DNA of 64,000 nt from Candidatus Falkowbacteria bacterium (GTDB taxonomy: Bacteria > Patescibacteriota > Patescibacteriia > Patescibacteriales > WJLG01). How positions within the stretch are numbered: the first letter of the stretch is position 1; every line of letters starts with the position of its first letter. Below are positions 31,158-53,755 of this stretch, one piece after another. Location of the stretch: contig CAVVFV010000008.1 of assembly GCA_963747695.1 (NCBI GenBank), positions 75,592 to 139,591 on the forward strand. Reading direction: 5' to 3'. Both the position numbers and the translations under genes were made by a program. The notes under the pieces are model-generated. The model did no database searches and was not told the origin of the DNA. It saw only the letters and a list, made by a program, of their open reading frames with translations.

Positions 31158-31286
31158 AATAAGCAGAGAAGAGAAAATATTTTTAGATCAAAATTAAAAT
31201 ACTATAACCGGAGGGAAATAGGAGACTACTTAAAGTTTTGATAAATAATTATTTTGCCAAGGACGATTCGTTTGACTAGAAAAAAT

Positions 31287-32351
31287 ATGAAAACCCAAAA
31301 ACAAAAATTGTTCATCGCGCTGCTGATGCTGACCATGCTGCTCGTTTACGGTTCCGTTCCCTCGGTCACCGAAGCTACCTCGATGAAAAGCGTCAAGGAT
31401 ACGATTTCCAGTTCTGATGTTTCCAAAGCTAATGTCACGCACACGATCATTGCCTCAACCACGCAGGCGATTACTGCCAATGGTTATTTTGAAATAATTT
31501 TTCCCGCAGCCTTTACCAATGTCGCGGCTGGCAATCTAACTTGTCCGAATTCGGGAACGCCGGGCGGAGCCGGCAACACTTTGACTTGCGGATACACGGG
31601 CGGTTTGGCAGCCGGACTTTATACGATTACTTTGACCGGCACCACCAATCCTTCGTCGGTCGGCAGCCAGATGATCACGGTCAATACCAAACAAAGCGGC
31701 GGAGCGATGATCGAACATTCCACTTTGCGGGTGGCGATCGTTAATAGCGTGTCAGTCACGGCTACCGTTCAAGCATCCCTGACTTTTACAATCTCCGGCA
31801 TTGGCACGACAACCCCCGAGTATGTTAACGGCGTTCTCTGCAATGCTTCCTCGACTTACAATACCTTGCCTTATGGAATTCTGACTCCGGGAGTAGAGAA
31901 GACCATCTGCCAAAGAATGAACGTTACCACTAACGCCGATTATGGCTATTCAGTTACGGTAGTCCAAGATCATAATCTGTTAGCCAGCAATGGCGCCGAT
32001 ATTGATTCTTTCGATAATGGCTTGCCCGCTTCCACAACTCCTCTGGCTTGGGCATCGCCATCGGCTGTCTTAGGCAATGCCCATACTTACGGTCATTTCG
32101 GTTTAACGAGCGGTGATACTACTTTAAGTGATGGTAATCCTTTCATTGGCTCGCTTTATAAAGGTTTTTGGCTCAACAGAAACACCTCGACTGAAATCCC
32201 GATTGAAGTTATGTGGCACAATGGCGTTTCCGACGGTCTGACCAAAGGGATCGGCTCATCGACCGTGGCTTATTCGGTCGAAATCAGCGCCTTGCAAGAA
32301 GCCGGTGATTATTCCAATACGCTGACTTACGTCTGCACCCCGACTTACTAA
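31287..32351 (+). CDS. Secreted protein (354 aa from ATG 31287; the track ORF starts at TTG 31254) with a C-terminal WxL-like domain shared with the giant protein
   Basis: Signal peptide MKTQKQKLFIALLMLTMLLVYGSVPSVTEA. The C-terminal ~200 aa (31730..32348) are homologous to 30461..30997. TAA stop is followed by a terminator. Confidence 0.85.
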   Translation: MKTQKQKLFIALLMLTMLLVYGSVPSVTEATSMKSVKDTISSSDVSKANVTHTIIASTTQAITANGYFEIIFPAAFTNVAAGNLTCPNSGTPGGAGNTLTCGYTGGLAAGLYTITLTGTTNPSSVGSQMITVNTKQSGGAMIEHSTLRVAIVNSVSVTATVQASLTFTISGIGTTTPEYVNGVLCNASSTYNTLPYGILTPGVEKTICQRMNVTTNADYGYSVTVVQDHNLLASNGADIDSFDNGLPASTTPLAWASPSAVLGNAHTYGHFGLTSGDTTLSDGNPFIGSLYKGFWLNRNTSTEIPIEVMWHNGVSDGLTKGIGSSTVAYSVEISALQEAGDYSNTLTYVCTPTY

Positions 32352-33070: not shown

Positions 33071-33241
33071 GAGGATCAGCCGCTGTTGTGGTTTATGTTC
33101 AATGGAAAAAAATTATCTGTCATAATCGGGTTTATTATCAAGCGAAGCGAGCGAAATGATCTCGCGCCTCGCCGGGATCGTTTCCGAGCGAGCGCAGAGA
33201 AAATACTCCGTCCGCTTGCGGCGGAGACACCTGCCAGAAAG

Positions 33242-34360
33242 ATGGGGCGAGTGCTCGCCCTGCGGTTGATACCCTTAATTTTTGTCTGTTTTTTTATTCC
33301 TTTTTGCGGTGTCAAAGCGGCGGATAATGAAATAACCATTAAAGTGACTCCTTCGATCCTTGAGCAGATGGTCAAACCAGGCGATATTTTTTCCAGCCAG
33401 ATCGCGATTACCAATGAATCGCAGCAAGAGATCACTTTTTACCCTTACCTGAAAGATTTTAAGGCCGCGGCCGAAGATGAGAGCGGCCAAGCCCAGTTGA
33501 TCGCTCCGGGATCCGAAACTGGCAATTATATTTCTTCCTGGATAAATATTTCGCCTGATGGCATTGATCTTTTGCCCGGGCAAGAACAGCAAATTCCTTT
33601 TACGATAAACATTCCCACCAATGCCGGCCCCGGAGGATATTACGGAGCGATAGTTTTTGGAACTACCGCGCCGAAGGCGAAGCCGGGAGAAGCGGATAAG
33701 GGCGCCGAGATCGGCGTGGCCGAACAAGCCGCTTCGCTGATCCTTCTGCAAATTGCCGGCATCGCCGATGAGCGGGCGGAGATCCGCGAATTCAAAACCG
33801 ATAAAACTTTTTACAATACCCCTTTCACGGTAAATTTTTCCGCTCGGATCCAAAATTTGGGCAATGTGCACGTCAAACCGATGGGCGTGATTGAAATTAC
33901 CAATATGCTCGGCCGAAAGGTCGCGACGCTGCCGGTTAACGACAAAGGCGGGAATGTCCTGCCCAAGAGTACCAGGTTATTTACCGCCGTTTGGCAAGAC
34001 AGTTTAGGTTTTGGCCGTTATCAGGCGGCCCTGGTTTTAAGTTATGGGACGCCGGCCGATCTGGGCGGCGAAGGCCGTAAAACTTTGACGATGTTCTGGT
34101 ATTTTTGGATTTTGCCGGTTAAAATTTTAATTTCCGCCGGCGCCAGCCTTTTGATCTTGATCATTCTTTTCTTGATTTTTCTCCGGGTTTATCGGCGGAT
34201 GGCGATCAAATCAGCGATGACCAGGATGGGGATGAGAGGCGGACAAGTTTTAAAAAAGCAAAAAACGCCGCGGGAGAAAAACGAATTCCTGCTGACCTTC
34301 CTGATCTTGGGCGGAATTGCGGCGGCGGTAATCGTCATCCTTTATTTCATCTTATTTTAA
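33242..34360 (+). CDS. Surface protein paralogue 1, DUF916+DUF3324-like (CscA-like) architecture, C-terminally membrane anchored
   Basis: The likely start is ATG 33242, giving signal peptide MGRVLALRLIPLIFVCFFIPFCGVKA (the track ORF starts at 33086). First half: ITIKVTPSILEQMVKPGDIFSSQIAITNESQQEITFYPYLKDF...PTNAGPGGYYGAIVFGT. Second half: FSARIQNLGNVHVKPMGVIEITNMLGRKVATLPVNDKGGNVLPKSTRLF...GRYQAALVLSYG. TM ILISAGASLLILIILFLIFL plus a basic stretch, then a second C-terminal TM. Confidence 0.8.
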   Translation: MGRVLALRLIPLIFVCFFIPFCGVKAADNEITIKVTPSILEQMVKPGDIFSSQIAITNESQQEITFYPYLKDFKAAAEDESGQAQLIAPGSETGNYISSWINISPDGIDLLPGQEQQIPFTINIPTNAGPGGYYGAIVFGTTAPKAKPGEADKGAEIGVAEQAASLILLQIAGIADERAEIREFKTDKTFYNTPFTVNFSARIQNLGNVHVKPMGVIEITNMLGRKVATLPVNDKGGNVLPKSTRLFTAVWQDSLGFGRYQAALVLSYGTPADLGGEGRKTLTMFWYFWILPVKILISAGASLLILIILFLIFLRVYRRMAIKSAMTRMGMRGGQVLKKQKTPREKNEFLLTFLILGGIAAAVIVILYFILF

Positions 34361-35441: not shown

Positions 35442-36521
35442 ATGCTAAAAAAATTTTTGTTGCTAATCTTTTCGATATTTTTTATTTTCAGTCCGGGTTT
35501 TGCTTGGGCGGCCAATGATTCTTCCGTGGCTTTGACGATTACGCCACCGCTTTCAAAAATTAATATGGAGCCGGGAGAAAGCCTGGCGACGGCGATCAAG
35601 GTCGTCAATAATAACGCTTTCCCGGTAACCATTTATGCCAAGACCGTCGATTTTGCCGATAACGGATCGGGCGGAGTAAAATTTCTGGACGACGGCAATC
35701 TGCCGAACACGCCGGAAAATCAAAGCATCTATCTCAGTCAATGGATCACCTTGAGCCAGGACAGCCAGACTTTGCAACCATTCCAAACCGCCACTTTTTC
35801 TTTTTCCATCGATGTGCCGCTCAATGCCCAGCCCGGCGGACATTACGCGGCAATCCTGGTCGGCACCAATCCGCCCGGAGAGACGGCTAAAGGTACGGAA
35901 ATAAAAGTATCTTCCTATCTTTCGTCCCTGATACTCGCCCGCGTCGCCGGAGCGATCGTGGAAAAAGGGGCAATCAGGGAATTCACTTTTACCAACCGAG
36001 TCTATCAGGGCGGCGAGGGCAATTTCCGCGTCCGGTTTGACAATCTGGGTAACGTCCATCTGGCGCCGACCGGCGATATCAAGATCTTTGATATGTTCGG
36101 CAAGCAAAAGGGCGAGATCCCCGTGAACGAGGCGAGCGAGTTCGGCAATGTCCTGCCCAAAAGCGAACGGACTTGGGATAATTTGAAGTGGTCGGGAGAT
36201 GATTTCTTCTTAATCAATCGTTACCGGGCGGAATTGTCGCTTTCTTACGGCGATGAAGCCAAACAAACCGAATTCGCCACTTTCTTTTTCTGGGGATTTA
36301 ATTGGCGCCTGTTAGCTATCATCGGCGCTGCTCTCTTGATTCTCCTCGTCTTGATCATTATTTTGGTAAGATTCTATATCCGCCGTTCGGTGAAGGATTT
36401 GGAAAAGCAATTCAAACTCGCGGAAGCGGCCCGGAGAAAAGTCGAGAAAAGAAAGATTGAAAAAGAGAAGGCGGAAGAAAAATTGGCGGAGAAAAAAATT
36501 ATCGACTTGCGGAAAAAATAA
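35442..36521 (+). CDS. Surface protein paralogue 3, DUF916+DUF3324-like architecture
   Basis: Signal peptide LLLIFSIFFIFSPGFAWA. First half: VALTITPPLSKINMEPGESLATAIKVVNNNAFPVTIYAKTVDF...PLNAQPGGHYAAILVGT. Second half: FRVRFDNLGNVHLAPTGDIKIFDMFGKQKGEIPVNEASEFGNVLPKSERTW...NRYRAELSLSYG. TM LLAIIGAALLILLVLIIILV followed by a basic and K/E-rich tail. Confidence 0.85.
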   Translation: MLKKFLLLIFSIFFIFSPGFAWAANDSSVALTITPPLSKINMEPGESLATAIKVVNNNAFPVTIYAKTVDFADNGSGGVKFLDDGNLPNTPENQSIYLSQWITLSQDSQTLQPFQTATFSFSIDVPLNAQPGGHYAAILVGTNPPGETAKGTEIKVSSYLSSLILARVAGAIVEKGAIREFTFTNRVYQGGEGNFRVRFDNLGNVHLAPTGDIKIFDMFGKQKGEIPVNEASEFGNVLPKSERTWDNLKWSGDDFFLINRYRAELSLSYGDEAKQTEFATFFFWGFNWRLLAIIGAALLILLVLIIILVRFYIRRSVKDLEKQFKLAEAARRKVEKRKIEKEKAEEKLAEKKIIDLRKK

Positions 36522-36585: not shown

Positions 36586-37329
36586 ATGTTTACGTCTCGT
36601 AAGTATCCAATAAAAAGCATTGATATTTTTTTGCGGTTTTTGACGCCAGCCTTGATTGTCGTTAGTTTTTTTGTTTATTGCCATTCGGCGAAGGCCAATA
36701 GTGATATATTCGTAACTGAAAATACGACCTGGACTAGCGGACAAGTTGTCGTAATTAACGATAACACTAATTTGAATATTCAAGCGACCTTAACGATCGA
36801 ACCTGGCGTTGTTGTAAAATTCGGGAGCAATAGTTTGCTGGCCGTAAACGGAAGTTTGATTATTCAAGGTACCTCTGAAAATTTAGTGACTTTAACCTCT
36901 TTGCGAGACGATTTGGTTGGAGGCGATTCCAACGGCGACGGAGCTTCAACTTTCCCTTCGCCTGGGGATTGGGGCGGAATAATAGATTACGGAAAAATTA
37001 ACGCCGATTATGTTAAAATAAAATATGCTGGCGGTATTACGTTTGGTGGGACGAACATTTATTTTGAAGAAGTGGCATACAGTGGTGAAGCAATAACCCA
37101 TAGCATTTTTATCGATAATTTGGGGTATTTACTTTTTTGGCCTGGCAATTATTCCGCGTTTAAGATTAATTATTCCGATATTTATAATAATATTTATCCT
37201 CTTTCTTCCGGTTCAGGCGGTATTGATATGAGTAATAATTATTGGGGCAGTCCCGAAGGGCCGACATTGTATTATCCGGTGCCCGGAAGGGCGAATATTT
37301 TAGGAAATGTTGGTTATAAGCATTTTTGA
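36586..37329 (+). CDS. Secreted right-handed beta-helix (CASH/NosD-like) protein; possibly the N-terminal part of the next ORF
   Basis: Signal/anchor [20 protein letters not shown]. Body: [64 protein letters not shown] carries the NYWG motif common at the end of CASH-type beta-helices. The TGA stop (37327..37329) overlaps the TTG of the next ORF within a T5 run. Confidence 0.7.
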
Positions 37330-40190
37330 CTACACCTTGGGAGGAAAAAGGTATTCCGGTTGTCACTACGCTTAGCCAGTTTAAATCTGACGGGACAACT
37401 CCGATCACGGAAGGCGCAAGCACTACGGAAAACGCCGTTGTCTTCCAAGGAATGCTGACAAGTCCCGCCGATAATCAAACGCAGTTGCAGGTCGAAGTTG
37501 AACCGTCGGTGAGTGCGTTTACCGGCATCCCTACCGCGACCAGCAGTTTCGTCGTTTCCGGCCAGACCGCTTCGGTAACCGTTTCGAATTTAGCCAACGG
37601 CTCATACCATTGGCAGGCGAGAGCGGAAGATTCTCAAGGAGCCACCTCAACTTGGCAGACGATGAGCAACCCCGCCGTTGCTGCGGATTTTTCGATAGTA
37701 CATTTCCCGGTGATCATTGTGCCGGGAATTTTAGGAAGCACCCTTGATGAAAAGAATTTTTTGCTTAATAAAGAAATCTGGCCGGATCCGGCAACATATA
37801 TCGCCGATCCGTTCGACAGGCAATTGGATGAACTAAAAATGGATGCCGCCGGTAATTCCGTAAAAGATATTTTTACTACTGATGTCATAAGAGATGTTTT
37901 AGGAACGGATATTTATGGCGGACTGATTAATTATCTTGAGGCTAATGGTTATCAAAAAAATAAAGATTTATTCATCTTCCCTTATGACTGGCGATTAGAT
38001 TTAGATTCCGTGGCTGGTGATAATATGCCTTGCGAATCGACCACAACTTTAAAATGTTTGATAGATGAAGTTAAACAAAAAACAAATTTAGATAAGGTTG
38101 ATATCGTCTCGCACAGCATGGGAGGCCTGGTGGTTAAAGATTATGCGGCCAAATTCGGGCAGGATTCAATTGATAAATTTATTGACATTGCTACGCCTAA
38201 TTTGGGGGCACCAAAAGCAGCCAAGATTTTGGAATATGGAGATAATTTGGGCTTTAACTTAACAGGTTATTATTTTTTAAGCACAAACAAAATTAAAGAA
38301 ATTTCTCTGCAAATGCCCTCGATTTATCAGCTTCTACCCAGTCAAGGGTATTTTAATCTTACTGGCGACGGCTATGGATATTATTTATATAATAATTCAA
38401 AAGTCGGCGGGGTCAATCTCCAGGGTGAATTAAATTATAATAATTCCTTATCATATTTAACCGCCAGTAATAATGGAATAACGCAGTATTTTGTAAATAA
38501 AAATTCGCTTCTGCACACAGCCATTGATAACGTAAAAATCAATAATTCCTATACCATTTCCGGTTGCGGCACTCCGACCATCGGCAAAATCTATAATTTG
38601 GGCAAAAAAGCTTTTTTCTTGGATAACTACGGCTTGAAATATGTTGACGGCGATGGCACAGTGCCCTTGAAAAGCGCTAATTCTTTCGGCGACAATAAAT
38701 ATTATCTTTCAGGGAAGGATCATTTGCAAATTCCGGGCGCGCAAGAAGTGAAAGATTTTGTTTATTTGGTTTTAAATAATCAAGAAGCGGAATATCCGTT
38801 TGCGCAATCACAAAATTTTAAAGCTGATGACAGTATCTGTGGAATTTCCGGTAAAGAAATCGAATACCATTGTCCGGTTGAGATGAATATTTACGACGAT
38901 CAGGGCAATCATACCGGTCCGACTGCCAACGGCGATATTGAAAATAAAATTCCGGGTGTCCAGTATGATATTGTTGATGGCAATAAATTCGCTTTCTTGC
39001 CCGCGGGCGGTAATTATCGGGTAACCGGTACGGCGGTCGGAACCGGAACCCTGGAAGTGGCGATCAAAACAGTGGTGAATGGCCAATATACTAATACTGA
39101 ATATTTTAACAGCATTCCGCTCCCGTCAACTTCGGTCAGAACAGAAATTGATTTAACTTCCGGCCAGGACAATCGAACTGTAAAAGTCGATGCCAACGGC
39201 GACGGAGTTTTTGAAGAAGAAAAAAATTCCGATGCTGTTTTAACCGGTAATGAGATGGACGACCTCGTCAAGCCGATTACAATAATGAGCATTGCCGGAA
39301 CAAAAGGAAATAATGGCTATTACGTTTCCGGCGTCAAAATTGATCTCGCGGCGACCGATGATAATTCCGGGGTGCTAAAGACAGAATATAGTTTGGATAA
39401 CGGAATAACTTGGACTAATTACGCCGGAGAATTTACGGTCTCCCAAGACGGAACCACGACAATTTTGTATTCTTCAACCGACAGGGCTGGAAACCGGGAA
39501 GAAAACAAAGAAGCAACTTTCGCAATAGACAAGACCGGTCCGACTATCAGTTTTTTGTTGCCACAAGAGGCCCAGGAAGTTTTGCACAATGAAACACTAG
39601 ACGTTGAATATTTCGCCAGTGATAATTTTTCCGGCGTTGACACTGCCACCGCCAAAATTTATTTGGACGGCAATCTCGTTAATTCAAATTTAATCGACCT
39701 GTTTGGTCAAAGCCTTGGCTCGCATCAAATAAAAATATCAATTCAAGATTTGGCCGGCAATCAAGCCGAGCAAACAGTTAATTTTTTGGTAATTACTGAT
39801 GTTGACGGTACGATCGCCGACGTCAGTCGCGCCTATGCCGAAAAAATGATCACCAAAGTAGACGCTAAGAACGATTTGATCAACAGCCTAACGGATATTA
39901 AAAATTTTCAGGAAAAATACGGCCAGAGGATTGATAAAGAAAAAGCAATGCGGGATAAGGCTATGATCCAATGCTTGAAGTATAAAAATCAAGTCTGGTG
40001 CAGTAATAAAATCGGCACGATATTTGATAGGTTTGAATATCAGTTGAACAAAATCGATAAGGCCGTGATCAAACTAAAATATAATCTTATTTTAACGAAA
40101 TTAGACATATATCTGAAAACGAAGTGGATTAATCAAACAGGATACAATATAATAAGGGAGGATATAAAATATTTAATTAATAACTTATAG
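37326..40190 (+). CDS. LCAT/PDAT-family-like alpha/beta-hydrolase (putative secreted phospholipase/acyltransferase) with an N-terminal A-type module and C-terminal Ig-like domains
   Basis: [12 protein letters not shown]; [10 protein letters not shown] (PYDWR at 37979..37993); [15 protein letters not shown] (SHSMGG at 38109..38126, GxSxG nucleophile elbow). The N-terminus [15 protein letters not shown]...LQVEVEP...[23 protein letters not shown] resembles the A modules of the giant proteins. C-terminus: ...[28 protein letters not shown]...STDRAGNRE. There is no signal peptide of its own. Confidence 0.75.
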
Positions 40191-40194
40191 CTCT

Positions 40195-40434
40195 ATGAAA
40201 AGGTATAAAGAAGTTTTAATTCCATTGTTTTTTTTATTACCGTTCTTACTTCCTTTGCTCACCTTGTCCCTTGACGCCTTTTTTCTCATCGCCTATTTTA
40301 TTTTAATATTTCCATTATTATTATTTAAGCTGAGTGACAAGAAACGCCGCTTATTTTATTTTATTCTATTCTATTTAATTTTATTGATTATCGTTGTGAC
40401 AAAAATGCTTAGCGGTAATTTAATTTCTTTTTGA
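40195..40434 (+). CDS. Small hydrophobic membrane protein (79 aa)
   Basis: ATG at 40195. The product has 2-3 predicted TM stretches (LIPLFFLLPFLLPLLTLSL, FFLIAYFILIFPLLLF, FYFILFYLILLIIVV). The frame stays open in very AT-rich DNA, where stop codons should be frequent. Confidence 0.5.
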   Translation: MKRYKEVLIPLFFLLPFLLPLLTLSLDAFFLIAYFILIFPLLLFKLSDKKRRLFYFILFYLILLIIVVTKMLSGNLISF

Positions 40435-40463
40435 CATAAATTGATAAAATTTTCGTTCTCATT

Positions 40464-40766
40464 ATGATCGAAACTATGAACAAAAATACTTTGACCCTAA
40501 TATTAAAACACTACCTTTTTTTCGTATTTATTCCGGCGGGGCTTGCTGCTTTGTTTGGATATTTAGGATTCCAAGCGTTACCAACAATTTTAGTTGATTT
40601 TATAGTTTTTTTATCCCCTTTTGTCTTTTTTATAGCTACTTATAGGAAAAGCGCTAAAAATGTAAAAAGTAAACCAATGTTAATTCTATTTTCATTTATC
40701 ATCCCTTGTTTATTTACGGGTTATATATATATAATATTATCAGCTGTTTCAAAGTTAATTATTTAG
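40464..40766 (+). CDS. Small polytopic membrane protein (100 aa)
   Basis: ATG at 40464. Three hydrophobic segments: YLFFVFIPAGLAALFGYLGF, LVDFIVFLSPFVFFIATY and MLILFSFIIPCLFTGYIYIILSAV. Confidence 0.5.
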   Translation: MIETMNKNTLTLILKHYLFFVFIPAGLAALFGYLGFQALPTILVDFIVFLSPFVFFIATYRKSAKNVKSKPMLILFSFIIPCLFTGYIYIILSAVSKLII

Positions 40767-40857
40767 CGGCATTATGAAAAAATCAAAGAAGTTTTAATTT
40801 AATACATACTCATTGAGGCGGTTTATAAAAATATTAATTAATAAATATAAAGTTTTT

Positions 40858-41100
40858 ATGAAGAAAGCAATAAATTTGACTACCGCGATTATTCTTTTCT
40901 TCGTCGCGTTCTCGGTTATTTTAAGTAAAGAAGTCTTAGCCGACCTGACGCCCCCAGGATATACCCCGGGGTATAAACACGTTTTAGGGGGGCATCTTTC
41001 GGATTTATTTCAACCAGAATATATTGTAGTTGGAATTATTGTTACAGCTGTTGTGATTATTTCTTTAGTTCTTTTGTTCAAAATCAGAAAGAAAAAATGA
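40858..41100 (+). CDS. Small secreted/anchored protein (80 aa from ATG 40858; track ORF from TTG 40813): signal peptide + short ectodomain + C-terminal TM + KIRKKK tail
   Basis: MKKAINLTTAIILFFVAFSVILSKEVLA then DLTPPGYTPGYKHVLGG...EYIVVGIIVTAVVIISLVLLFKIRKKK*. The stop overlaps the next start (ATGA at 41097..41100). Confidence 0.5.
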   Translation: MKKAINLTTAIILFFVAFSVILSKEVLADLTPPGYTPGYKHVLGGHLSDLFQPEYIVVGIIVTAVVIISLVLLFKIRKKK

Positions 41101-41441
41101 CCATCGGTTCATATTTATTAGCACTAGGCTTAACTCTAATCATTGAATTATCAGTCGCTTACGCGTTGGGTTTTAGAAATGCCAAGTCACTGCTAAGCGT
41201 TATTTGCGTGAATTTGATATCCCATCCTCTTTTCGGCTATTTTTTATGGATCAATCAATCCGCCGCCTTTATCCCCATCAACTATTATTCAATTATTATT
41301 TTAGAAATAATAATCACTATCGTTGAAGCGGCTTTACTGTTTTTTGCCTTGAAACAAAAATTTGCGACTATGCTCTGGTTATCGCTAGCGATGAATTTTA
41401 CCTCGTTTGCGATTGGACAATTGATTTTTAAAAATATTTAG
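41097..41441 (+). CDS. Small polytopic membrane protein (114 aa), translationally coupled to the previous ORF
   Basis: ATGA start/stop overlap at 41097..41100. There are 3-4 hydrophobic segments. Confidence 0.5.
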   Translation: MTIGSYLLALGLTLIIELSVAYALGFRNAKSLLSVICVNLISHPLFGYFLWINQSAAFIPINYYSIIILEIIITIVEAALLFFALKQKFATMLWLSLAMNFTSFAIGQLIFKNI

Positions 41442-41460
41442 CCAATTTTGACATTAGATT

Positions 41461-41556
41461 TTGGTTCGGCGCCAGTCTTGCGAAGGTGATATTGATTTGG
41501 CGGATTTTTAATTTCAGCATTTCGGCAGAGTCCCCGCGGCAGAAGACTCTGCCGGA
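41461..41556. repeat. GC-rich ~95-nt element, copy A (related copy at 42386..42480); contains a 10-bp-stem hairpin
   Basis: TTGGTTC-N6-AGTCTTGC (41461..41481) and AGTCCCCGCGGCAGAAGACTCTGCC (41529..) match TTGGTTC-N6-AGTCTTGC (42386..42406) and AGTCCCGCGGCGGAGACTGC (42459..) with the same internal spacing. The hairpin is CGGCAGAGTC (41523..41532) pairing with GACTCTGCCG (41545..41554). Confidence 0.45.
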
Positions 41557-41731
41557 GCCAATAAAAAAAGGAAAGATTTTTTGTATCCTTCCCGTCTAAT
41601 GCCACCTCTTTTGTTTTATGGCTTTTTTGTCCGATTACTCCTAACTTTTAGTGATTACAACCCGCTGTTACTAGCTGTTCATGATAAATGAGAAATATTA
41701 ATTAGAATAGTAAAACTTAAAATATTTCCCC

Positions 41732-42313
41732 CTAAAAATGATAGTAAGGGAAAAATAAATGTTCAAAAAAAGAATAAATGAAACCGATAATATTAACTAA
41801 TAAGCCAAAATTTGTTAGTACGCCAATCGTTGATCCAATAATAAATGCTTGAATTTTGTTTAAGTTGAAAAATTTTCTTGAGAGCCAATAATTGTGGATG
41901 GTTAAACAAAGAAAAGTAGTTAAAATAATCGCTATATCTATAGTATAAAGATTATTATGAATATTGATTTTAGCTACCAGATAGCTACAGATATAAGCAA
42001 GAAGTAGGTCGATAACAATTGCGCCGGTCGTAGCGAGCAGGGAATATTTTAGAAATTTTAATGACGTGACAAGTTTGTGTTGTTTTAAAATTAAACTCCC
42101 GATAAATATTGCAAGAATATTAGCAAGGTAAATTACGCAAAATAATACTAAAAGAGCTATAATTAAAGTTGGTATTAAAGGCGGTTGCGGTGCTCCTATT
42201 AAAGTTGGCACTGTGGACAGCCTTGGAACTGCCGAGTTGGCCAGAGCAATAGAGGGTATAATTATTAATGGTGATACAATCAGAGATGAAATTATTTTTT
42301 TTACCGAAAGCAT
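41732..42313 (-). CDS. Polytopic membrane protein (193 aa); the only - strand gene in the window
   Basis: ORF in the track with signal/TM IISSLIVSPLIIIPSIALA and at least 5 hydrophobic segments. The DNA is AT-rich, and the gene is bracketed by the two related ~95-nt elements. Confidence 0.6.
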   Translation of the reverse strand: MLSVKKIISSLIVSPLIIIPSIALANSAVPRLSTVPTLIGAPQPPLIPTLIIALLVLFCVIYLANILAIFIGSLILKQHKLVTSLKFLKYSLLATTGAIVIDLLLAYICSYLVAKINIHNNLYTIDIAIILTTFLCLTIHNYWLSRKFFNLNKIQAFIIGSTIGVLTNFGLLVNIIGFIYSFFEHLFFPYYHF

Positions 42314-42385
42314 ATAGATATTGTTATATTTTTAATATATCAATATTATGTACCATTTATTCAATTTTGATAAATATTAGTAGGG

Positions 42386-42480
42386 TTGGTTCAACCATAG
42401 TCTTGCTCCGCTGGTTGGCGAAAGCGGACTGTAACTGAGATTGATTCGTCGGCGTCGAAGTCCCGCGGCGGAGACTGCGA
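42386..42480. repeat. GC-rich ~95-nt element, copy B (related to 41461..41556)
   Basis: See copy A. The end blocks are conserved, the middle is diverged, and the hairpin is degraded in this copy. Confidence 0.4.
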
Positions 42481-42604: not shown

Positions 42605-43510
42605 ATGTCTGAAGTACTTGATCTAAAACATAAATCAAGGCGAGCCGGAGAAGATGAGTATTCCGGCCGTTTTGAAGTTGAAGAGCCGGTCAGGAAAAGG
42701 AAATTCGGCTGGGTTAGTTGGCTCGTCGTGATGATCGTTGCCGTCGCTTTGACGACCGTCGGGATCAAGGCCAGTGACAGCCTGTTCGGCGGCAAAGATA
42801 AAAATAATTCTTTATGTCCGGCGGAAATGGTTTTTGTGCCCGGCTCGACCGGAGGTTTTTGCCTTGATAAATACGAAGATGCCGCCGGAAGCGGCTGCTC
42901 TTTCAAGAATCCGGGCAACCAGGACGAAACCAGGTCTGATCTGGAAAGCCAAACTTGCCAGCCGGTGTCGCAGGCGGGGATGATTCCCTGGCGTTATATT
43001 TCGCAAAATCAGGCGGCGGTGGCTTGCGCCAAAGTCGGCAAACGCTTGCCCACCAATGAAGAATGGCTCGCGGCTGCCTTGGCTACGCCGGACAAAAATT
43101 CCAATTGGGGGGCTGATGATTGCCAAGTCGCCAATAATTGGGATCAACAGCCGGGTTTGACCGGCTCGGGAAAAAATTGCGTTTCCGGCGCCGGTGCTTA
43201 TGATATGATCGGCAATGTCTGGGAATGGGTTGAGGGAACGGTCGAGGATGGGAAATATCAGGGGAATACCTTGCCTGACGACGGTTATATTAAGGGGGTT
43301 AATTCCCTGGGCATGCCTACCGACACCGATCCGGATCAGGCTGACGCTAATTATAATGATGATTATCTCTGGATAAAAAAGACCGGTTCGCGCGGCATCG
43401 CCCGCGGCGGCTATTGGGATAATAATGACCAGGCCGGACAATATTCCATCTATCTGGTGACGCCGCCGTCGGAAGCGGGCACGGGAACCGGATTCCGGTG
43501 CGCGAAATAA
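42605..43510 (+). CDS. Membrane-anchored FGE-sulfatase/SUMF1-domain protein (formylglycine-generating-enzyme family-like)
   Basis: TM WVSWLVVMIVAVALTTVGI. Body: CPAEMVFVPGSTGGFCLDKYE; GAYDMIGNVWEWVEGT; RGGYWDN; GTGFRCAK*. These are the motif types I associate with FGE-sulfatase domains. Confidence 0.7.
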   Translation: MSEVLDLKHKSRRAGEDEYSGRFEVEEPVRKRKFGWVSWLVVMIVAVALTTVGIKASDSLFGGKDKNNSLCPAEMVFVPGSTGGFCLDKYEDAAGSGCSFKNPGNQDETRSDLESQTCQPVSQAGMIPWRYISQNQAAVACAKVGKRLPTNEEWLAAALATPDKNSNWGADDCQVANNWDQQPGLTGSGKNCVSGAGAYDMIGNVWEWVEGTVEDGKYQGNTLPDDGYIKGVNSLGMPTDTDPDQADANYNDDYLWIKKTGSRGIARGGYWDNNDQAGQYSIYLVTPPSEAGTGTGFRCAK

Positions 43511-43688: not shown

Positions 43689-44132
43689 ATGTTTTTCTTC
43701 AAGAAAATTTGGCATTCTTTCCTGATCTTCGCCGTCGCGGTAGCTTTTTCTTATTTCGCTTTTTTTCTTTTTTTTCATCCGCTGAATTTAGTTTTTTTCC
43801 TGGGCGATAAATTGAGCGCCGCCACCGGTATCACGAATTCAGCTACCGTGCCGGAAAATCCGATCAATCAATTGGCGCTGCAGCTTAATAACAAAGAGGA
43901 TCAACTCAATCAAAAAGAACAAGAGTTGAACAACCGCGAAGCGCAGCTTAATACGCAGAATAATTTTTGGAACAGCGGTTTGCTTTTGGCGATTTTCCTC
44001 GCCTTGGGAATCTTGGCGGCTTTGGTGGTGCTTAATTTTTATTTTGATCGCCGTCGCGAAAAAGAACTCGAGATACTCGCCCAGCGGGAGATCAAAGATA
44101 ATTTGGTTAAGGAAGAAAAAAATATCGAGTAA
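43689..44132 (+). CDS. Small bitopic membrane protein with an extracytoplasmic coiled-coil (147 aa)
   Basis: TM FLIFAVAVAFSYFAFFLFF. Q/N/E-rich heptad-like stretch NQLALQLNNKEDQLNQKEQELNNREAQLN. Second TM LLLAIFLALGILAALVVLNFYF. Confidence 0.65.
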   Translation: MFFFKKIWHSFLIFAVAVAFSYFAFFLFFHPLNLVFFLGDKLSAATGITNSATVPENPINQLALQLNNKEDQLNQKEQELNNREAQLNTQNNFWNSGLLLAIFLALGILAALVVLNFYFDRRREKELEILAQREIKDNLVKEEKNIE

Positions 44133-44136
44133 AATA

Positions 44137-45924
44137 ATGAGCAGCAAAAAAATTCATAACTTTTGTTATTTTCTCAGCGGCGTCGGCTGTTTGCTGGCCG
44201 TTTTTTTAATCTCGGCTTCTTCCGTCAGAGCCACCAATTTATATCAAGCTTATGACTTGATCGATGATTCCGGTCCGACCAAACCGACCAACCATACTTT
44301 GCATTTTATTACCGACCAGGCCATCCCTCCGGGCGGCAAGATTGTCATCAGTTTCGCCCCGGACGGGTTGGTCGTTCCAGTCTTGTTTGATTATCATGAT
44401 TTGGATCTGGCAGTTGCCGCCTCCGGTACTGACATTTTTTTGGATCGGAGCCTGGATGAGACAGCGGCTACCAATACCGACGGCGTTGCGGTTAATTCCG
44501 GTTTGGGTGGAAAGATTGTCATTACCTTAAGTTCTTCCTTGGGTATCGACGCTCATCAACAGGTGCGGATCAAGATCGGTAACAACGCTTCTTTCGGCGG
44601 TTTGGGGACCGATCAAATCATCAACGCCGGTTCACCGGGAAATTATTGGCTCGACGTGAAAACTTATGACGCGGCTGATTCGATCATCGACAATGTCCGA
44701 ACTTTCGTGGTGATGATCGAACCGGTGGCGGTCAGCGCCGGCTTGCGCAAGATCCGGAGCAACGGCTTACCAACCGGAACTTTGACGGCGCAAACCAAGT
44801 CGACGATCATGTCTTTGACTACCAACTATGACGCCACCTGCCGTTACAGCGTCGCCAGCGGGACGGATTTTTACGATATGGCGGATGAGTTTTATACTTC
44901 CGATAATATCTATCACACCATCATTATCACCGGCTTATCCAGCGCCCGCTGCTTTTCTTATTTTGTCCGCTGTCATGATAATGTCACCGATGAAGTGAAC
45001 GACGACGATTATCTGATTCATTTTTGCGTAGCGGCCGAAGGTAGCGGCGGAACGGGCGGCGGAACGGGCGGCGGAACGGGCACGGGAAATGGTACGGGAA
45101 ATGGTTCGGGAGGGGGTTCAGGCAGCGGCGGGGGCGGGGGTAGCGGCAGCGGCGGGGGTAGCGGTGGCGGCAGCGGTCCGCTGAAGCGCTATCCGCTTGA
45201 AAGCAACGAATTACCCAGCGTGGCTCTGAGCGGCTTTGCTTATCCGGGCTCCAGCATCAATGTTTCCCAGGACACTAAATCAGTCGCCACGGTTCAGGCG
45301 AAGAGCGATGCGAGTTTTTTGGCCGCCATCAGCGGCCTGACCAAAGGGCTTTATACTTTCACTCTAGTGGCTAAAGATACGGAAGGAATAACCTCGATCG
45401 CTTATCCGACAACTTTCTGGATCGAGGAAAATACTCAAACCAACGTGGCCAATATTTTGATTCCGCCGACGATTAAGCTCTCCAGCACAACGATCCAGCT
45501 CGGAGATAACATTGTCGTTTCCGGACAAAGCGCCCCGAGCGTCCGCGTCTTCATTCAGTTGAATGATCCGAAAAATAAGTTATTAAGCACCCACGTGGAA
45601 AATTCGGCGGCTGACGGCCGCTGGAGTTCGATTTTCCCCACTGCCGGTTTTAGTGAAGGCATTTATCAATTGACCGCGCTGACTTCCTATCCCAAGATCG
45701 GCTCAAGCACCTTGAGCGAGAAAGTCTTATGCGGCGTGGGACAAAAGCTGGAACAAGGACCCTGTTCGCGGTCGGATATCAACAAGGACGGCAAGATCAA
45801 TCTGGTTGATTTTTCCATTATGATGTTTTATTGGGGGACGAATAACTCCACTGCCGATATGAATCAGGACGGTACGGTCAACCTGGTCGATTTTTCCATC
45901 ATGATGTACTGCTGGACCGGATAA
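44137..45924 (+). CDS. Secreted dockerin-bearing protein (595 aa from ATG 44137; track ORF from 44044)
   Basis: Signal peptide MSSKKIHNFCYFLSGVGCLLAVFLISASSVRA. Gly-rich linker GGTGGGTGGGTGTGNGTGNGSGGGSGSGGGGGSGSGGGSGGGSG. Two Ig-like domains. C-terminal duplicated Ca-binding loops DINKDGKINLVDFSIMM / DMNQDGTVNLVDFSIMM. Confidence 0.85.
   Translation: MSSKKIHNFCYFLSGVGCLLAVFLISASSVRATNLYQAYDLIDDSGPTKPTNHTLHFITDQAIPPGGKIVISFAPDGLVVPVLFDYHDLDLAVAASGTDIFLDRSLDETAATNTDGVAVNSGLGGKIVITLSSSLGIDAHQQVRIKIGNNASFGGLGTDQIINAGSPGNYWLDVKTYDAADSIIDNVRTFVVMIEPVAVSAGLRKIRSNGLPTGTLTAQTKSTIMSLTTNYDATCRYSVASGTDFYDMADEFYTSDNIYHTIIITGLSSARCFSYFVRCHDNVTDEVNDDDYLIHFCVAAEGSGGTGGGTGGGTGTGNGTGNGSGGGSGSGGGGGSGSGGGSGGGSGPLKRYPLESNELPSVALSGFAYPGSSINVSQDTKSVATVQAKSDASFLAAISGLTKGLYTFTLVAKDTEGITSIAYPTTFWIEENTQTNVANILIPPTIKLSSTTIQLGDNIVVSGQSAPSVRVFIQLNDPKNKLLSTHVENSAADGRWSSIFPTAGFSEGIYQLTALTSYPKIGSSTLSEKVLCGVGQKLEQGPCSRSDINKDGKINLVDFSIMMFYWGTNNSTADMNQDGTVNLVDFSIMMYCWTG
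45763..45921 (+). other. Dockerin (type I-like) domain
   Basis: Two ~22-aa segments each with DxNxDGxxNxxD (DINKDGKINLVD, DMNQDGTVNLVD) followed by F-S-I-M-M. This is the classic duplicated EF-hand-like dockerin signature. Confidence 0.8.
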
Positions 45925-46550: not shown

Positions 46551-48314
46551 TTGAAAAAAATGCTTAAGATTTTATCTAAAGTTTTACTTAGCCTGTTGTT
46601 TTTATCGTTTACGATCGGTTTTTTGCCGGCTAATGACGCGGCGGCGGCCGGGGCGATTTTGTATTTGTCGCCGGCTAGCGGCACCTATAGCGTTGGTGAT
46701 GTTTTTAGCGTCAGCGTCCTTTTGAATAGCGGTGGCGGGAGCGGCGTTAATGCTTCCGACGGGAACATCAAATTCGATAATGATTATCTAGCGGTTAAAG
46801 ACATTTCCAAAAATAATTCGGTTTTCAGCCTTTGGACGGCTGACCCGACTTTTTCCAATACCCAGGGGACGATAACTTATTCCGGCGGAGCCCCGACGGC
46901 TTACAAGGGCAGTTCAGGCGTGATCATTTCCGTTTCTTTCGTGGTGTTAAAGGCGGGTTCCGGCGGGGCCACTTTTTCCTCGGCGAGCGCCTTGGCCGCT
47001 GATGGGCAGGGGACCAATATCTTGGCCAATACTTCCGGCGCCAAATATACTTTTAACGCCAAGGCCCCGGCCGCTAACAATCCGACTTCGACCGCCCCGG
47101 CAACCGGCAATCAGCCGGCCCCGGCAGCCTCGAGCGGCGCCCTGCCGCCTCAGCCCGAAATAAATTCAGTTACTCATCCCGATCAAAATGTTTGGTATGC
47201 CAATAATAATCCGGAATTAGGATGGAAGCTCTTGCCTGATATTTCCGCGGTAAGTTTTTCGCTCGACCAAAGTTCTTCAACCGACCCGGGCAAGAAATCG
47301 GACGGTATCATCGAAACCAAAACCTATTCGCTGGTGCCGGATGGCCGCAACTTTTTTCACATAAAATTTCAAAACAAGACCGGCTGGGGTCCGGTCGGTA
47401 ACCGTCAAATCTTGATCGATGTCACCCCGCCGACTGATTTCACGATCAATATCGATAACGGCAACGATCCCACCAACCCGACGCCGAAATTGTCCTTTAC
47501 CACGGTTGACGTCACGAGCGGCATCGCTTCTTATAAAATAAATTTAGACGGTGAGATCAAGGATTATCCGACCGCCGACTACCTTAAGAATCCTTACCAA
47601 CTGCCGGTCCTTAAGCCGGGTACGCATCAGTTGGTCATCACTGTTACCGATCAGGCGGGTAATGCCGCCAGCTCTTCCCAGCAATTTACCGTTGAGCCTT
47701 TGAAAGCGCCGGTGATCACCGATATGCCCAGTTCGATCAATCAAGGCGCGGAATTGGCGATCCAGGGAACCTCTTTTTATCCCAACGCGACAATCAACAT
47801 TTTCATTTCCCCGGATAATAAGAATATCAAAACTTTGCAAACCAAAACCGATTCCGACGGCAATTGGACTTATTTCCAGCATAACGAATTGACCAAGAAT
47901 AGTTATCAGGTTTGGGCGCAGGTGATTGACAGCCGCGGCGCGCAAAGCGCGGAAAGCGCGCGCAAGCCATTGTTGGTCCAGACGCCTTCTTTGGTCAGCG
48001 CTTATGGTTTCTGGATCATTCTGTTCCTCGGCTTGGTGATTCTTTTCCTTATCCTCTTGATGATCTACGTGAAGAAGCAGAATAATTTGAGAAGAGACCG
48101 GGCGATCAGGGAATCGCAGGAATTGGAAAAGAGATTGAATGAGATCTTCGCCGCTCTCAAGGAAGAGGTCAATGAATTGATGGAGATGGCCGACAAGAAA
48201 GCCGGTTACTCCGAGTCGGAAAAGCGCGTCCGCGACAAGATCAATGAGGCCTTGGATATTTCCCAGGAATTCATCAGCAAGGAGATCAAAGATGTGGAAA
48301 AAGAGATTGAATAA
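46551..48314 (+). CDS. Cohesin-domain protein, C-terminally membrane anchored with a cytoplasmic coiled-coil tail (587 aa)
   Basis: Signal peptide LSKVLLSLLFLSFTIGFLPANDAAAA. Cohesin-like module, then P/A/T linker, then three beta-sandwich-like domains. TM FWIILFLGLVILFLILLMIYV, then a K/E/R-rich tail. The start is TTG 46551 or ATG 46560. Confidence 0.8.
   Translation: MKKMLKILSKVLLSLLFLSFTIGFLPANDAAAAGAILYLSPASGTYSVGDVFSVSVLLNSGGGSGVNASDGNIKFDNDYLAVKDISKNNSVFSLWTADPTFSNTQGTITYSGGAPTAYKGSSGVIISVSFVVLKAGSGGATFSSASALAADGQGTNILANTSGAKYTFNAKAPAANNPTSTAPATGNQPAPAASSGALPPQPEINSVTHPDQNVWYANNNPELGWKLLPDISAVSFSLDQSSSTDPGKKSDGIIETKTYSLVPDGRNFFHIKFQNKTGWGPVGNRQILIDVTPPTDFTINIDNGNDPTNPTPKLSFTTVDVTSGIASYKINLDGEIKDYPTADYLKNPYQLPVLKPGTHQLVITVTDQAGNAASSSQQFTVEPLKAPVITDMPSSINQGAELAIQGTSFYPNATINIFISPDNKNIKTLQTKTDSDGNWTYFQHNELTKNSYQVWAQVIDSRGAQSAESARKPLLVQTPSLVSAYGFWIILFLGLVILFLILLMIYVKKQNNLRRDRAIRESQELEKRLNEIFAALKEEVNELMEMADKKAGYSESEKRVRDKINEALDISQEFISKEIKDVEKEIE
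46647..47060 (+). other. Cohesin-like domain
   Basis: AILYLSPASGTYSVGDVFSVSVLLNSGGGSGVNASDGNIKFDNDYLAVKDISKNNSVFSLWTADPTFSNTQGTITYSGGAP...VISVSFVVLKAGSGGATF. This matches the pattern I associate with non-cellulosomal cohesin modules (l.l.P......G..f.v.v.......v.a.d..i.fD...L.v..i). Confidence 0.6.
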
Positions 48315-48440: not shown

Positions 48441-48636
48441 TTAAGATGCCAGACTGTACGCTTTTGAGCGGAATTTTTATGTTTGAAGTAGCAAACTTTA
48501 AGAGATTAGTTCGTTAAAATATAATCCGAATTCTATTAATAATATTCTAAGACTACGAGTTCTGCGAACCGCACAATGGTTTGTGGCGATGTTCGTAGTA
48601 TTCGGATATTTCGTAGGTTCGGATTATGTTTGTCCC

Positions 48637-53652: not shown

Positions 53653-53755
53653 TTTTAATTTCACCGTCAACGATCCGGATGGCGATAATTCGCTGACGGC
53701 GCAGGCGGATTATTATCTTGATGCCAATTGTCATACGACCAAATATAAGGCGACG

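Follow-up and report, generated by a model that had tools for sequence, protein, structure and literature searches.

A split gene for a predicted Sec-exported LCAT-type lipase in Candidatus Falkowbacteria and its candidate membrane-protein partner

How Patescibacteria obtain the membrane lipids that they cannot synthesize is an acknowledged open question: their mechanisms of lipid uptake and breakdown have been described as unidentified (PMC11665869), and candidate phyla radiation (CPR) cells are reported to be rich in lysolipids that they cannot make (PMC7242380). The question arises anew at a 64,000-nucleotide stretch from a Candidatus Falkowbacteria bacterium (GenBank assembly GCA_963747695.1, contig CAVVFV010000008.1, forward-strand positions 75,592 to 139,591; this whole stretch is called the window, and all positions given are positions within it), for which a preliminary description made from the sequence alone had proposed that the open reading frame (ORF) 37326..40190 encodes a secreted lipase resembling lecithin:cholesterol acyltransferase (LCAT), a candidate for harvesting or attacking host lipids. 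Does the locus encode such an enzyme, is the enzyme exported, and on what would it act? We conclude with high confidence that 36586..40190 is one split gene for an exported LCAT-family serine hydrolase. We further consider it probable on the whole that the product is a Sec-exported, multi-domain lipase of the LCAT/LPLA2/PDAT type that acts on foreign membranes with a partner; the functional part of this statement, phospholipase activity on foreign membranes with a protective partner, we hold tentatively, at slightly under even chances. The family offers a concrete and testable candidate for lipid acquisition, being exported, equipped with a complete LCAT-type active site, present in many patescibacterial lineages, variable through shuffled N-terminal domains and accompanied by a conserved membrane-protein partner.

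Membership in the LCAT family and the active site

ORF 37326..40190 lies on the plus strand, begins with TTG and encodes 954 amino acids (aa); it is present in the window's mechanical ORF list, and residue numbers refer to it unless stated otherwise. Its product matches the Pfam LCAT family (PF02450) with 83.8 bits and an E-value of 1.9e-23 (curated cut-off 21). In Pfam, Lipase_2, PGAP1, DUF676 and further alpha/beta-hydrolase families score far below this, and a single-sequence phmmer search of the PDB returned human LCAT and LPLA2 only. The single-sequence PF02450 match spans profile positions 67-204 of 392; a profile built from an alignment of 82 homologues (A1, also used for the AlphaFold2 model) and compared with the PDB widens this coverage to the PG-loop and the Asp loop, which it aligns, together with the PYDWR/nucleophile region, with LPLA2 (E=2.5e-15) and LCAT (E=3e-15). 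The motif match to the family is far above chance, and membership is solid: human LCAT and LPLA2 (PLA2G15), the best PDB matches, share the fold and the Pfam family, which also includes plant/yeast PDAT and PSAT. The lipase catalytic domain, about 20% identical to that of LCAT/LPLA2, is a new member of this known family; it belongs to a distant bacterial branch and is not an orthologue of the vertebrate enzymes. LCAT-like relatives were confirmed by tblastn at at least 287 species-level genome loci, many of the weaker, core-only matches lying in non-patescibacterial bacteria and the full-length matches in Paceibacteria, Microgenomates and Saccharibacteria; one homologue carries the JGI automatic annotation 'Lecithin:cholesterol acyltransferase'.

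The elements of the active site are these:

37710..37739, plus strand: PG-x-LG loop, aligned with LCAT PVILVPGCLGN; P133 and G134 are invariant and I135 stands at the position of LCAT C31
37980..37994, plus strand: PYDWR, with Y220, D221, W222 and R223 invariant; FPYDWRLD aligns with LCAT APYDWRLE
38115..38117, plus strand: nucleophile Ser264 (in SHSMGG, 38109..38126), aligned with LCAT S181
38652..38654, plus strand: catalytic Asp443, aligned with LCAT D345 and the GDGDGTV stretch of LPLA2
38721..38723, plus strand: catalytic His466, in GKDHLQIP, invariant in 82 sequences and 23 residues after Asp443

We take the PG-x-LG loop to be the oxyanion-hole loop, as in the LCAT and LPLA2 structures. 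S264, D443 and H466 are invariant in all 82 homologues of A1, as are H263-S264-x-G266-G267 around the nucleophile and G442, D443, T445, V446 and P447 in the Asp loop; the PDB alignments end before His466, which its invariance and the Ser-Asp-His order mark as the probable equivalent of LCAT H377. The order and aligned positions of the triad, the PG-x-LG loop, PYDWR and the cap region are all as in LCAT and LPLA2, and the Ser-to-Asp spacing of 179 residues, against about 163-164 in LCAT, indicates that the cap insertion is retained. The window lipase differs from these enzymes in that the region between the PG-loop and the Ser is ~20 residues shorter, in that its catalytic domain forms part of a bacterial multidomain protein of surface type, ~1,200 aa long, and in that the vertebrate disulfides (C50-C74 and C313-C356, LCAT numbering) are absent, residues 1-235 being Cys-free (the first Cys is residue 236) and C414 not aligning with C313; C414 and C505 are the conserved Cys of the lipase family in their place. 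The AlphaFold2 model of the ORF (made with A1) has a mean predicted local distance difference test (pLDDT) score of 91.1. When Foldseek compares it with the PDB, LCAT structures fill the first four places, led by human LCAT (E down to 2.7e-13, target TM 0.66, ~410 columns), so that model and search together recover the overall LCAT fold with its additional subdomains outside the minimal alpha/beta core.

These results bear out the preliminary description's assignment of the ORF to the LCAT-like alpha/beta hydrolases at the level of Pfam, PDB profile and Foldseek alike. Its position for SHSMGG (38109..38126) is exact, whereas PYDWR, correct as a motif, had been placed one base too early, at 37979..37993. 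The catalytic Asp and His that it asked to have mapped are found in D443 and H466, and neither of two outcomes that it had named as fatal to its proposal, the lack of an LCAT-family match or of these two residues, is what we observe.

A gene split by one base and its export signal

Secretion had also been claimed for this protein; on inspection of the sequence, however, the 954-aa ORF begins without a signal peptide, a hydrophobic N-terminus or a Shine-Dalgarno-like sequence, and no other start occurs in its frame before codon 43. Directly upstream on the same strand lies a 247-aa ORF, 36586..37329, whose TGA overlaps the TTG of the lipase ORF in 'TTGA'. The homologue P0002 is encoded by a single ORF (1,287 aa), and its C-terminal 950 residues share 73% identity with the 954-aa ORF; its residues 96-306 match the upstream ORF (38% identity, E=4e-35), and phmmer finds the same domain in the N-terminal regions of ~55 of the 119 homologues retrieved. 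The reconstructed gene has the following features:

36586..40190, plus strand: reconstructed full gene of ~1,201 codons, two overlapping ORFs here and one ORF in intact homologues
36586..36696, plus strand: Sec-type signal peptide as read from the sequence; its n-region is basic, its core hydrophobic, and AKA stands ahead of the probable cleavage site, which precedes NSD
37323..37327, plus strand: T5 homopolymer with the frameshift, one base short relative to P0002

The junction codons read CCG TTT TTA ACC TCG CCT TGG in P0002 (PFLTSPW; ...NYMPF-L-TSPW) and CAT TTT T-G ACT ACA CCT TGG in the window (...GYKHF* / LTTPW), and one added base in 37323..37327 (T6, or TTTTTA/G) fuses the two ORFs into ...KHF-L-TTPW, as in P0002. 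To judge by these homologues, 36586..37329 and 37326..40190 are one ancestral gene split by a one-base shortfall, 37326 is not the gene start, LSQFKSDG... is not the N-terminus of the protein, and the ORF as called makes up the 3' 80% of the gene. The preliminary description's motifs and A module (a domain discussed below) therefore hold, but its gene start and N-terminus do not, there being neither signal peptide nor Shine-Dalgarno sequence at 37326 and the upstream ORF being homologous to the N-terminal domain of intact homologues.

AlphaFold2 places a helix at residues 12-30 of the upstream ORF, in the signal-peptide region, and a heuristic based on hydrophobicity and charge finds N-termini resembling signal peptides in 88 of the 119 homologues, most of the others being visibly truncated. 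An extracellular location also fits the conserved Cys and the adhesin-type immunoglobulin (Ig)-like domains. The lipase family is accordingly predicted to be exported, and in this assembly the export signal and the lipase are out of frame with one another; 'secreted' can be kept for the reconstructed gene through the signal peptide of the upstream ORF and is wrong for the 954-aa ORF itself.

Two ways of reading through the junction were considered. Recoding of UGA as a sense codon at the upstream stop was rejected, for the read-through frame is unrelated to the homologues, whereas the -1 frame matches them. Alternatively, the split could be bypassed by a programmed -1 slip on U UUU UGA, in which the P-site tRNA-Phe re-pairs one base back and the A-site reads UUG, giving some full-length product. 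Such a slip on the T-run yields exactly the homologue-like junction ...HF-L-TTPW, and a stop codon in the A-site can favour P-site slippage; yet the closest homologue is simply in frame here, no other family member is split at this site and an unrelated second homopolymer frameshift in the window points to error or mutation, and we regard programmed slippage as highly improbable.

On whether the frameshift at 37323..37327 is an artefact or a mutation, the evidence points both ways. The second one-base homopolymer frameshift lies in an A7 run at 53624..53630 and splits ORFs 48583..53652 and 53756..61120; past the run, the +1-frame continuation matches the repeat of the 10,238-aa protein encoded by the giant ORF 284..31000. 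That giant ORF contains a 1,014-bp exact internal repeat (copies at 16826 and 21194, 4.4 kb apart), which suggests a long-read assembly, prone to homopolymer errors, because short reads rarely resolve an exact repeat of this length. Taken together, the second frameshift and the hint of long reads make a sequencing or consensus error plausible. A real mutation is favoured by the coding sequence as a whole, in that only two of the 262 homopolymer runs of at least 5 bases in 57.9 kb break a frame and the 30.7-kb ORF is intact. Neither a T5 nor a T6 allele was found in an exact-pattern scan of JGI metagenomes.

If the shift is real and not bypassed, the strain makes a truncated, secreted beta-helix fragment and the lipase is either untranslated or cytoplasmic, and a cytoplasmic protein is what the preliminary description had itself named as evidence against its proposal, which would then apply to this strain. 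Indeed, the locus may be a recently inactivated pseudogene or split gene in which T5 is fixed, only the 247-aa secreted beta-helix fragment is made and the lipase is silent or cytoplasmic, while the family may remain functional elsewhere; we take this seriously, at roughly one chance in three. The assembly has T5 where the intact homologue has six in-frame bases, no alternative start has a signal peptide or Shine-Dalgarno sequence, records of identical 954-aa and 247-aa products come from NCBI, ENA and Logan, and the frameshift site is common to no homologue. Set against this are the 954 codons that stay open apart from the one shift, with all catalytic and conserved residues intact, and the plausibility of a consensus error given the A7 frameshift and the exact repeat. 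For annotation, the called gene is incomplete, and the window has at least two homopolymer frameshifts in surface-protein genes.

Two observations on these other genes stand on their own. The stretch 48583..61120 is apparently one gene for a giant surface protein of ~4,170 aa, in which frame 0 ends ...NSAGEKKRRFGKS* and the +1 frame continues ...PGKKRDASGKVNFNFTVNDPDGD..., and the identical 1,014-bp duplication may point to an assembly from long reads, to gene conversion or to a duplication of very recent date.

Domain shuffling and the conserved downstream gene

Read across the junction, the protein would comprise, in order, a signal peptide, a beta-helix-like domain, an FN3-like module, the LCAT-like catalytic domain, a family-specific beta-sandwich, two Ig-like domains and a helical bundle:

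36703..37269, plus strand: N-terminal beta-solenoid (right-handed beta-helix-like), a putative binding or targeting domain (homologue matches, AlphaFold2 model)
37347..37664, plus strand: FN3/Ig-like 'A module', residues 8-113, Cys-free (blastp and hidden Markov model matches to the giant ORFs)
37683..38825, plus strand: LCAT-family catalytic domain, residues ~120-500, including the N-terminal subdomain and the cap insertion (Pfam, PDB profile, AlphaFold2, Foldseek)
38838..39245, plus strand: family-specific beta-sandwich, residues ~505-640 (alignment, AlphaFold2)
39258..39794, plus strand: two Ig-like domains, Big_13/OmpL47-type and then Big_7-like (Pfam Big_13 and Big_7)
39801..40187, plus strand: C-terminal helical bundle, residues 826-954, with the conserved Cys pair C883/C892 (AlphaFold2 pLDDT ~90-98)

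The model of the upstream ORF consists of short strands with pLDDT above 90 at residues 41-150. It has no significant Foldseek match, the weak ones being all beta-helix lyases and tailspikes, and neither Pfam nor NCBIfam matches ORF 36586..37329; the label 'beta-helix-like' is given because of the nature of these weak matches and the Pfam Beta_helix family (PF13229) found in several homologues. The A module is modelled with six or seven strands (pLDDT 66-87) and has only weak Ig/PKD-like hints in Pfam. Residues 8-120 of the lipase align with ~16 modules of ORF 284..31000 (22-29% identity, E down to 2e-8 in a window-only database) and also with modules of ORF 53756..61120, which confirms that the module is common to the lipase and the giant adhesins, as had been described, and the description of the lipase copy as uninterrupted and Cys-free is likewise correct: the giant-protein copies, which start LSQYKSDG... 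and end Y-x-WQ-x-x-A-x-D...W, carry a ~15-residue Cys-containing insertion that the lipase copy lacks. The giant ORF has one A module per ~485-aa super-repeat; FN3-like units and LamG-like segments make up these super-repeats together with the module.

Within the lipase family the A module occurs in the closest relatives only. Relatives whose catalytic parts are 50-75% identical have LamG, Kelch/propeller, Big_2 or one or two beta-helix domains at the N-terminus instead, so the A module is one of several interchangeable N-terminal pieces, exchanged by domain shuffling in the family.

The beta-sandwich is conserved family-wide and has invariant or near-invariant C505, H515, D524, H529 and E539, and the NCBIfam OmpL47-type beta-barrel domain matches residues 666-734 (E=7e-23), the Ig-like region resembling domains of the SiiE and SraP adhesins in Foldseek. 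Neither the beta-sandwich nor the helical domain matches Pfam or NCBIfam. The helical-bundle domain has 53 representatives among 1.84 billion proteins, nearly all of them C-terminal on LCAT-like proteins or stand-alone at ~100-160 aa. A role of this domain as a general surface anchor bound by small membrane proteins was rejected as the main idea, since it is nearly confined to the lipase family and lipases without a helical-domain match (L002, L005, L006 and L010) still have a small transmembrane gene downstream. As separate observations, the beta-sandwich adjoins the catalytic domain and could hold a metal- or ligand-binding site; ~20 of the 53 helical-domain representatives are stand-alone or fragmentary copies, and one stand-alone 115-aa copy (L084, 14786..15133) lies in the small-ORF array downstream of P0009.

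Immediately downstream of the lipase gene is a series of small membrane-protein ORFs:

40195..40434, plus strand: 79-aa protein with three predicted transmembrane segments (family A), starting 5 nt after the lipase stop
40464..40766, plus strand: small membrane-protein ORF of 100 aa, which may belong to the same array
40813..41100, plus strand: the same, 95 aa
41097..41441, plus strand: the same, 114 aa

The 79-aa ORF is 58-65% identical to the ORFs downstream of P0002 and P0009, and its ratio of nonsynonymous to synonymous substitution rates (dN/dS) of about 0.22 indicates that the window copy is under purifying selection. A jackhmmer search of 5,957 ORFs from 85 loci found family A nowhere but downstream of lipase genes. 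More broadly, a small transmembrane ORF (60-160 aa, at least 2 and up to 4 transmembrane segments, starting -12 to +120 nt from the stop) follows the lipase at 12 of the 17 patescibacterial loci where the lipase gene is complete; of the 84 control ORFs, which are the others of 300 aa or more at these loci, 2 are followed by one (Fisher p=4e-10). The conserved, co-inherited small gene directly downstream that characterizes an effector-immunity cassette is present here.

The small ORFs often form tandem sets of diverged paralogues: L005 has four, L082 three and the window (40195..41441) up to four. A weak similarity links the 100-aa ORF to those that immediately follow the L002 and L084 lipases (E=0.004 and 0.001, in a small database); in the fetched loci, jackhmmer detected no relative of this ORF or of the 95- and 114-aa ones. 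The small downstream ORFs have no match in Pfam or NCBIfam and no homology to known immunity families, Tli among them. Queried with the 79-aa and 100-aa ORFs, word-index protein searches returned nothing or the query alone, and of the 600 candidates from a degenerate-pattern metagenome scan for family A none was confirmed. By sequence, then, family A alone is firmly conserved, the other members of the array being supported by their position, size and topology only. The array stays beside the lipase while the wider neighbourhood changes. Its guanine-cytosine (GC) content in the window is 0.31, compared with 0.41 for the lipase, 0.48 upstream and 0.46 downstream, and at all six loci examined the array has by far the lowest GC and the lipase lies below its upstream flank.

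The low-GC stretch extends over 40195..42400 (31% GC, flanks 44-52%), with small polytopic membrane-protein ORFs of no database family on both strands, among them a 193-aa ORF on the minus strand at 41732..42313.

Candidate function and genomic context

We hypothesize that, after export, the variable N-terminal domains would bind a surface polymer or another cell, with the Ig-like domains as a spacer, and that the LCAT-type domain would dock on the membrane and cleave a glycerolipid acyl ester through an acyl-Ser264 intermediate, passing the acyl group to water (phospholipase A, giving lysolipid and fatty acid) or to an acceptor (transacylation). A host or neighbour membrane would be damaged, or lipid harvested from it, and the small polytopic membrane proteins would most likely protect, or act as partners at, the producer's own membrane. 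A foreign membrane is favoured as the target because the binding heads are variable, because LCAT-fold antibacterial effectors encoded beside protective genes provide a precedent, and because lipid dependence and lysolipid enrichment are documented for CPR bacteria.

The nearest such effector is Tle4/TplE of Pseudomonas aeruginosa, delivered by a type VI secretion system (T6SS), which has a related fold (4r1d, Tle4-Tli4; profile E=2.3e-10; Foldseek rank 6, E=3.3e-7, TM 0.42) and is likewise a lipase, there acting against the membranes of other bacteria, with a protective partner gene following its own (Tle/Tli literature). It differs in delivery, since the window lipase has a Sec signal peptide and no T6SS context, no T6SS, VgrG or PAAR genes being found among the window ORFs scanned; a PF02450 gene lies within a Pantoea T6SS island (PMC3942780). 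The role that we propose, a secreted phospholipase that disrupts the host membrane and supplies lipids, has been put forward for Vamp_34_196 of Vampirococcus lugosii, and secreted phospholipases have been proposed in CPR predators and epibionts where phospholipid synthesis is lacking (PMC8080830; PMC11665869), although these proposals rest on single annotations of other genes. The literature searched, whose coverage is incomplete and therefore weak evidence, contained no paper linking the LCAT family, the architecture or the small membrane-protein array to Patescibacteria; we did not find the architecture, the family-restricted beta-sandwich and helical domains, the N-terminal shuffling or the small-transmembrane array described there.

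The enzyme might instead remodel the producer's own membrane, as a surface phospholipase A or transacylase that converts scavenged diacyl lipids into lysolipids, with the small proteins as regulators or docking partners. LCAT-family enzymes (LCAT, LPLA2, PDAT) catalyse both hydrolysis and transacylation, which suits this explanation, as does the tight coupling of the membrane-protein genes to the lipase gene, and CPR-enriched size fractions are lysolipid-rich, with phospholipase A as one possible source (PMC7242380). Beta-helix, LamG and Kelch heads on a long Ig spacer nonetheless suit a foreign surface at a distance better, and tandem, diversified small paralogues look more like protection arrays, and we consider action on the producer's own membrane unlikely.

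The nucleophile elbow raises another alternative. Bacillus class-2 lipases (LipA/EstA) and Burkholderia/Pseudomonas family I lipases share its AHSMGG type and the core alpha/beta fold, and secondary matches to class-2 lipases, to Burkholderia/Pseudomonas triacylglycerol lipases and to the polyhydroxybutyrate (PHB) depolymerase PhaZ7, together with beta-helix and LamG domains typical of polysaccharide-active proteins, would fit an exo-esterase that scavenges nutrients from non-membrane substrates (triacylglycerol, wax, cutin-like or polyhydroxyalkanoate polyesters, acylated polysaccharides) whose N-terminal domains bind carbohydrate or polymer. Those matches, however, span ~55 residues at the elbow, whereas those to LCAT/LPLA2 run the full length of the ~400-residue domain and take in the N-terminal subdomain and the LCAT-type Asp loop, both of which, like PYDWR, the class-2 and family I enzymes lack, being minimal or otherwise capped. 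An exo-esterase would also leave the conserved downstream membrane proteins unexplained, and we think it quite improbable.

Extended beyond this locus, the proposed action on foreign membranes leads to a picture that we offer as speculation and consider rather doubtful, in which Patescibacteria share a widespread, mobile, low-GC cassette comprising a Sec-exported LCAT-type enzyme with interchangeable host-binding heads and a fast-evolving membrane-protein array that shields the producer membrane or receives lipid into it. This cassette would be the missing machinery that strips acyl chains or lysolipids from hosts, and homopolymer tracts could switch it on and off.

Several points weigh against the idea of a phospholipase that has a protective partner and attacks foreign membranes. 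Here the gene carries a frameshift that, if genuine, keeps this strain from making the full protein; a non-phospholipid ester is a possible substrate; and some of the small ORFs are uncalled by gene callers. The immunity role of the small membrane proteins is argued by analogy only: they have almost no extracytoplasmic loops and are not homologous to known lipase immunity proteins, and the known ones, Tli proteins included, are soluble periplasmic proteins or lipoproteins, unlike the 80-110-aa polytopic membrane proteins encoded here. No lipid-synthesis genes and no taxonomic markers lie within the 64-kb window, from which the organism's capacity for lipid synthesis is not established; the names attached to homologues point to a patescibacterial origin.

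The neighbourhood adds a further such point. As the preliminary description had it, the lipase gene follows an anchoring cluster, namely ORFs with weak WxLIP_PGBD (WxL-interacting-protein-like) matches and C-terminal transmembrane segments, and these in turn come after the giant protein, in which the final ~170 residues look like the C-terminus of ORF 31254..32351. This adhesin/WxLIP-like synteny is not conserved at any of the four close homologue loci examined (P0002, P0003, P0007 and P0009; 56-75% identity), where the neighbours are hydrogenase-like, NusA/IF3, restriction-modification or glycolysis genes. With the linkage absent there and the A module present only in the closest subset of relatives, delivery of the enzyme to the adhesin interface is not supported, and nothing in the sequences ties it to a cell-cell interface; what stands of the earlier interpretation is the LCAT family, the triad, the common module and, once the gene start is corrected, secretion.

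Some features of the surrounding genes may be recorded separately. In the window at 30500..31000, the giant protein ends in ~170 residues (...AGDYSTNIVYILVPTY) that share 34% identity (E=6e-20) with the C-terminal half of the protein encoded next, a secreted one of 365 aa at 31254..32351 (...AGDYSNTLTYVCTPTY), and this common domain is possibly a wall- or partner-binding end recognised by the WxLIP-like proteins 33086..34360 and 35442..36521. Just past the low-GC stretch, the membrane-anchored 301-aa product of 42605..43510 contains an FGE-sulfatase (formylglycine-generating-enzyme-like) domain (E=3.5e-15). Farther on, at 44044..45924 and 46551..48314, a type I dockerin protein (E=9.5e-9) lies near a protein with cohesin (E=1e-6) and Big_13 domains, which would be a cohesin-dockerin pair in an apparent patescibacterial surface-protein island.

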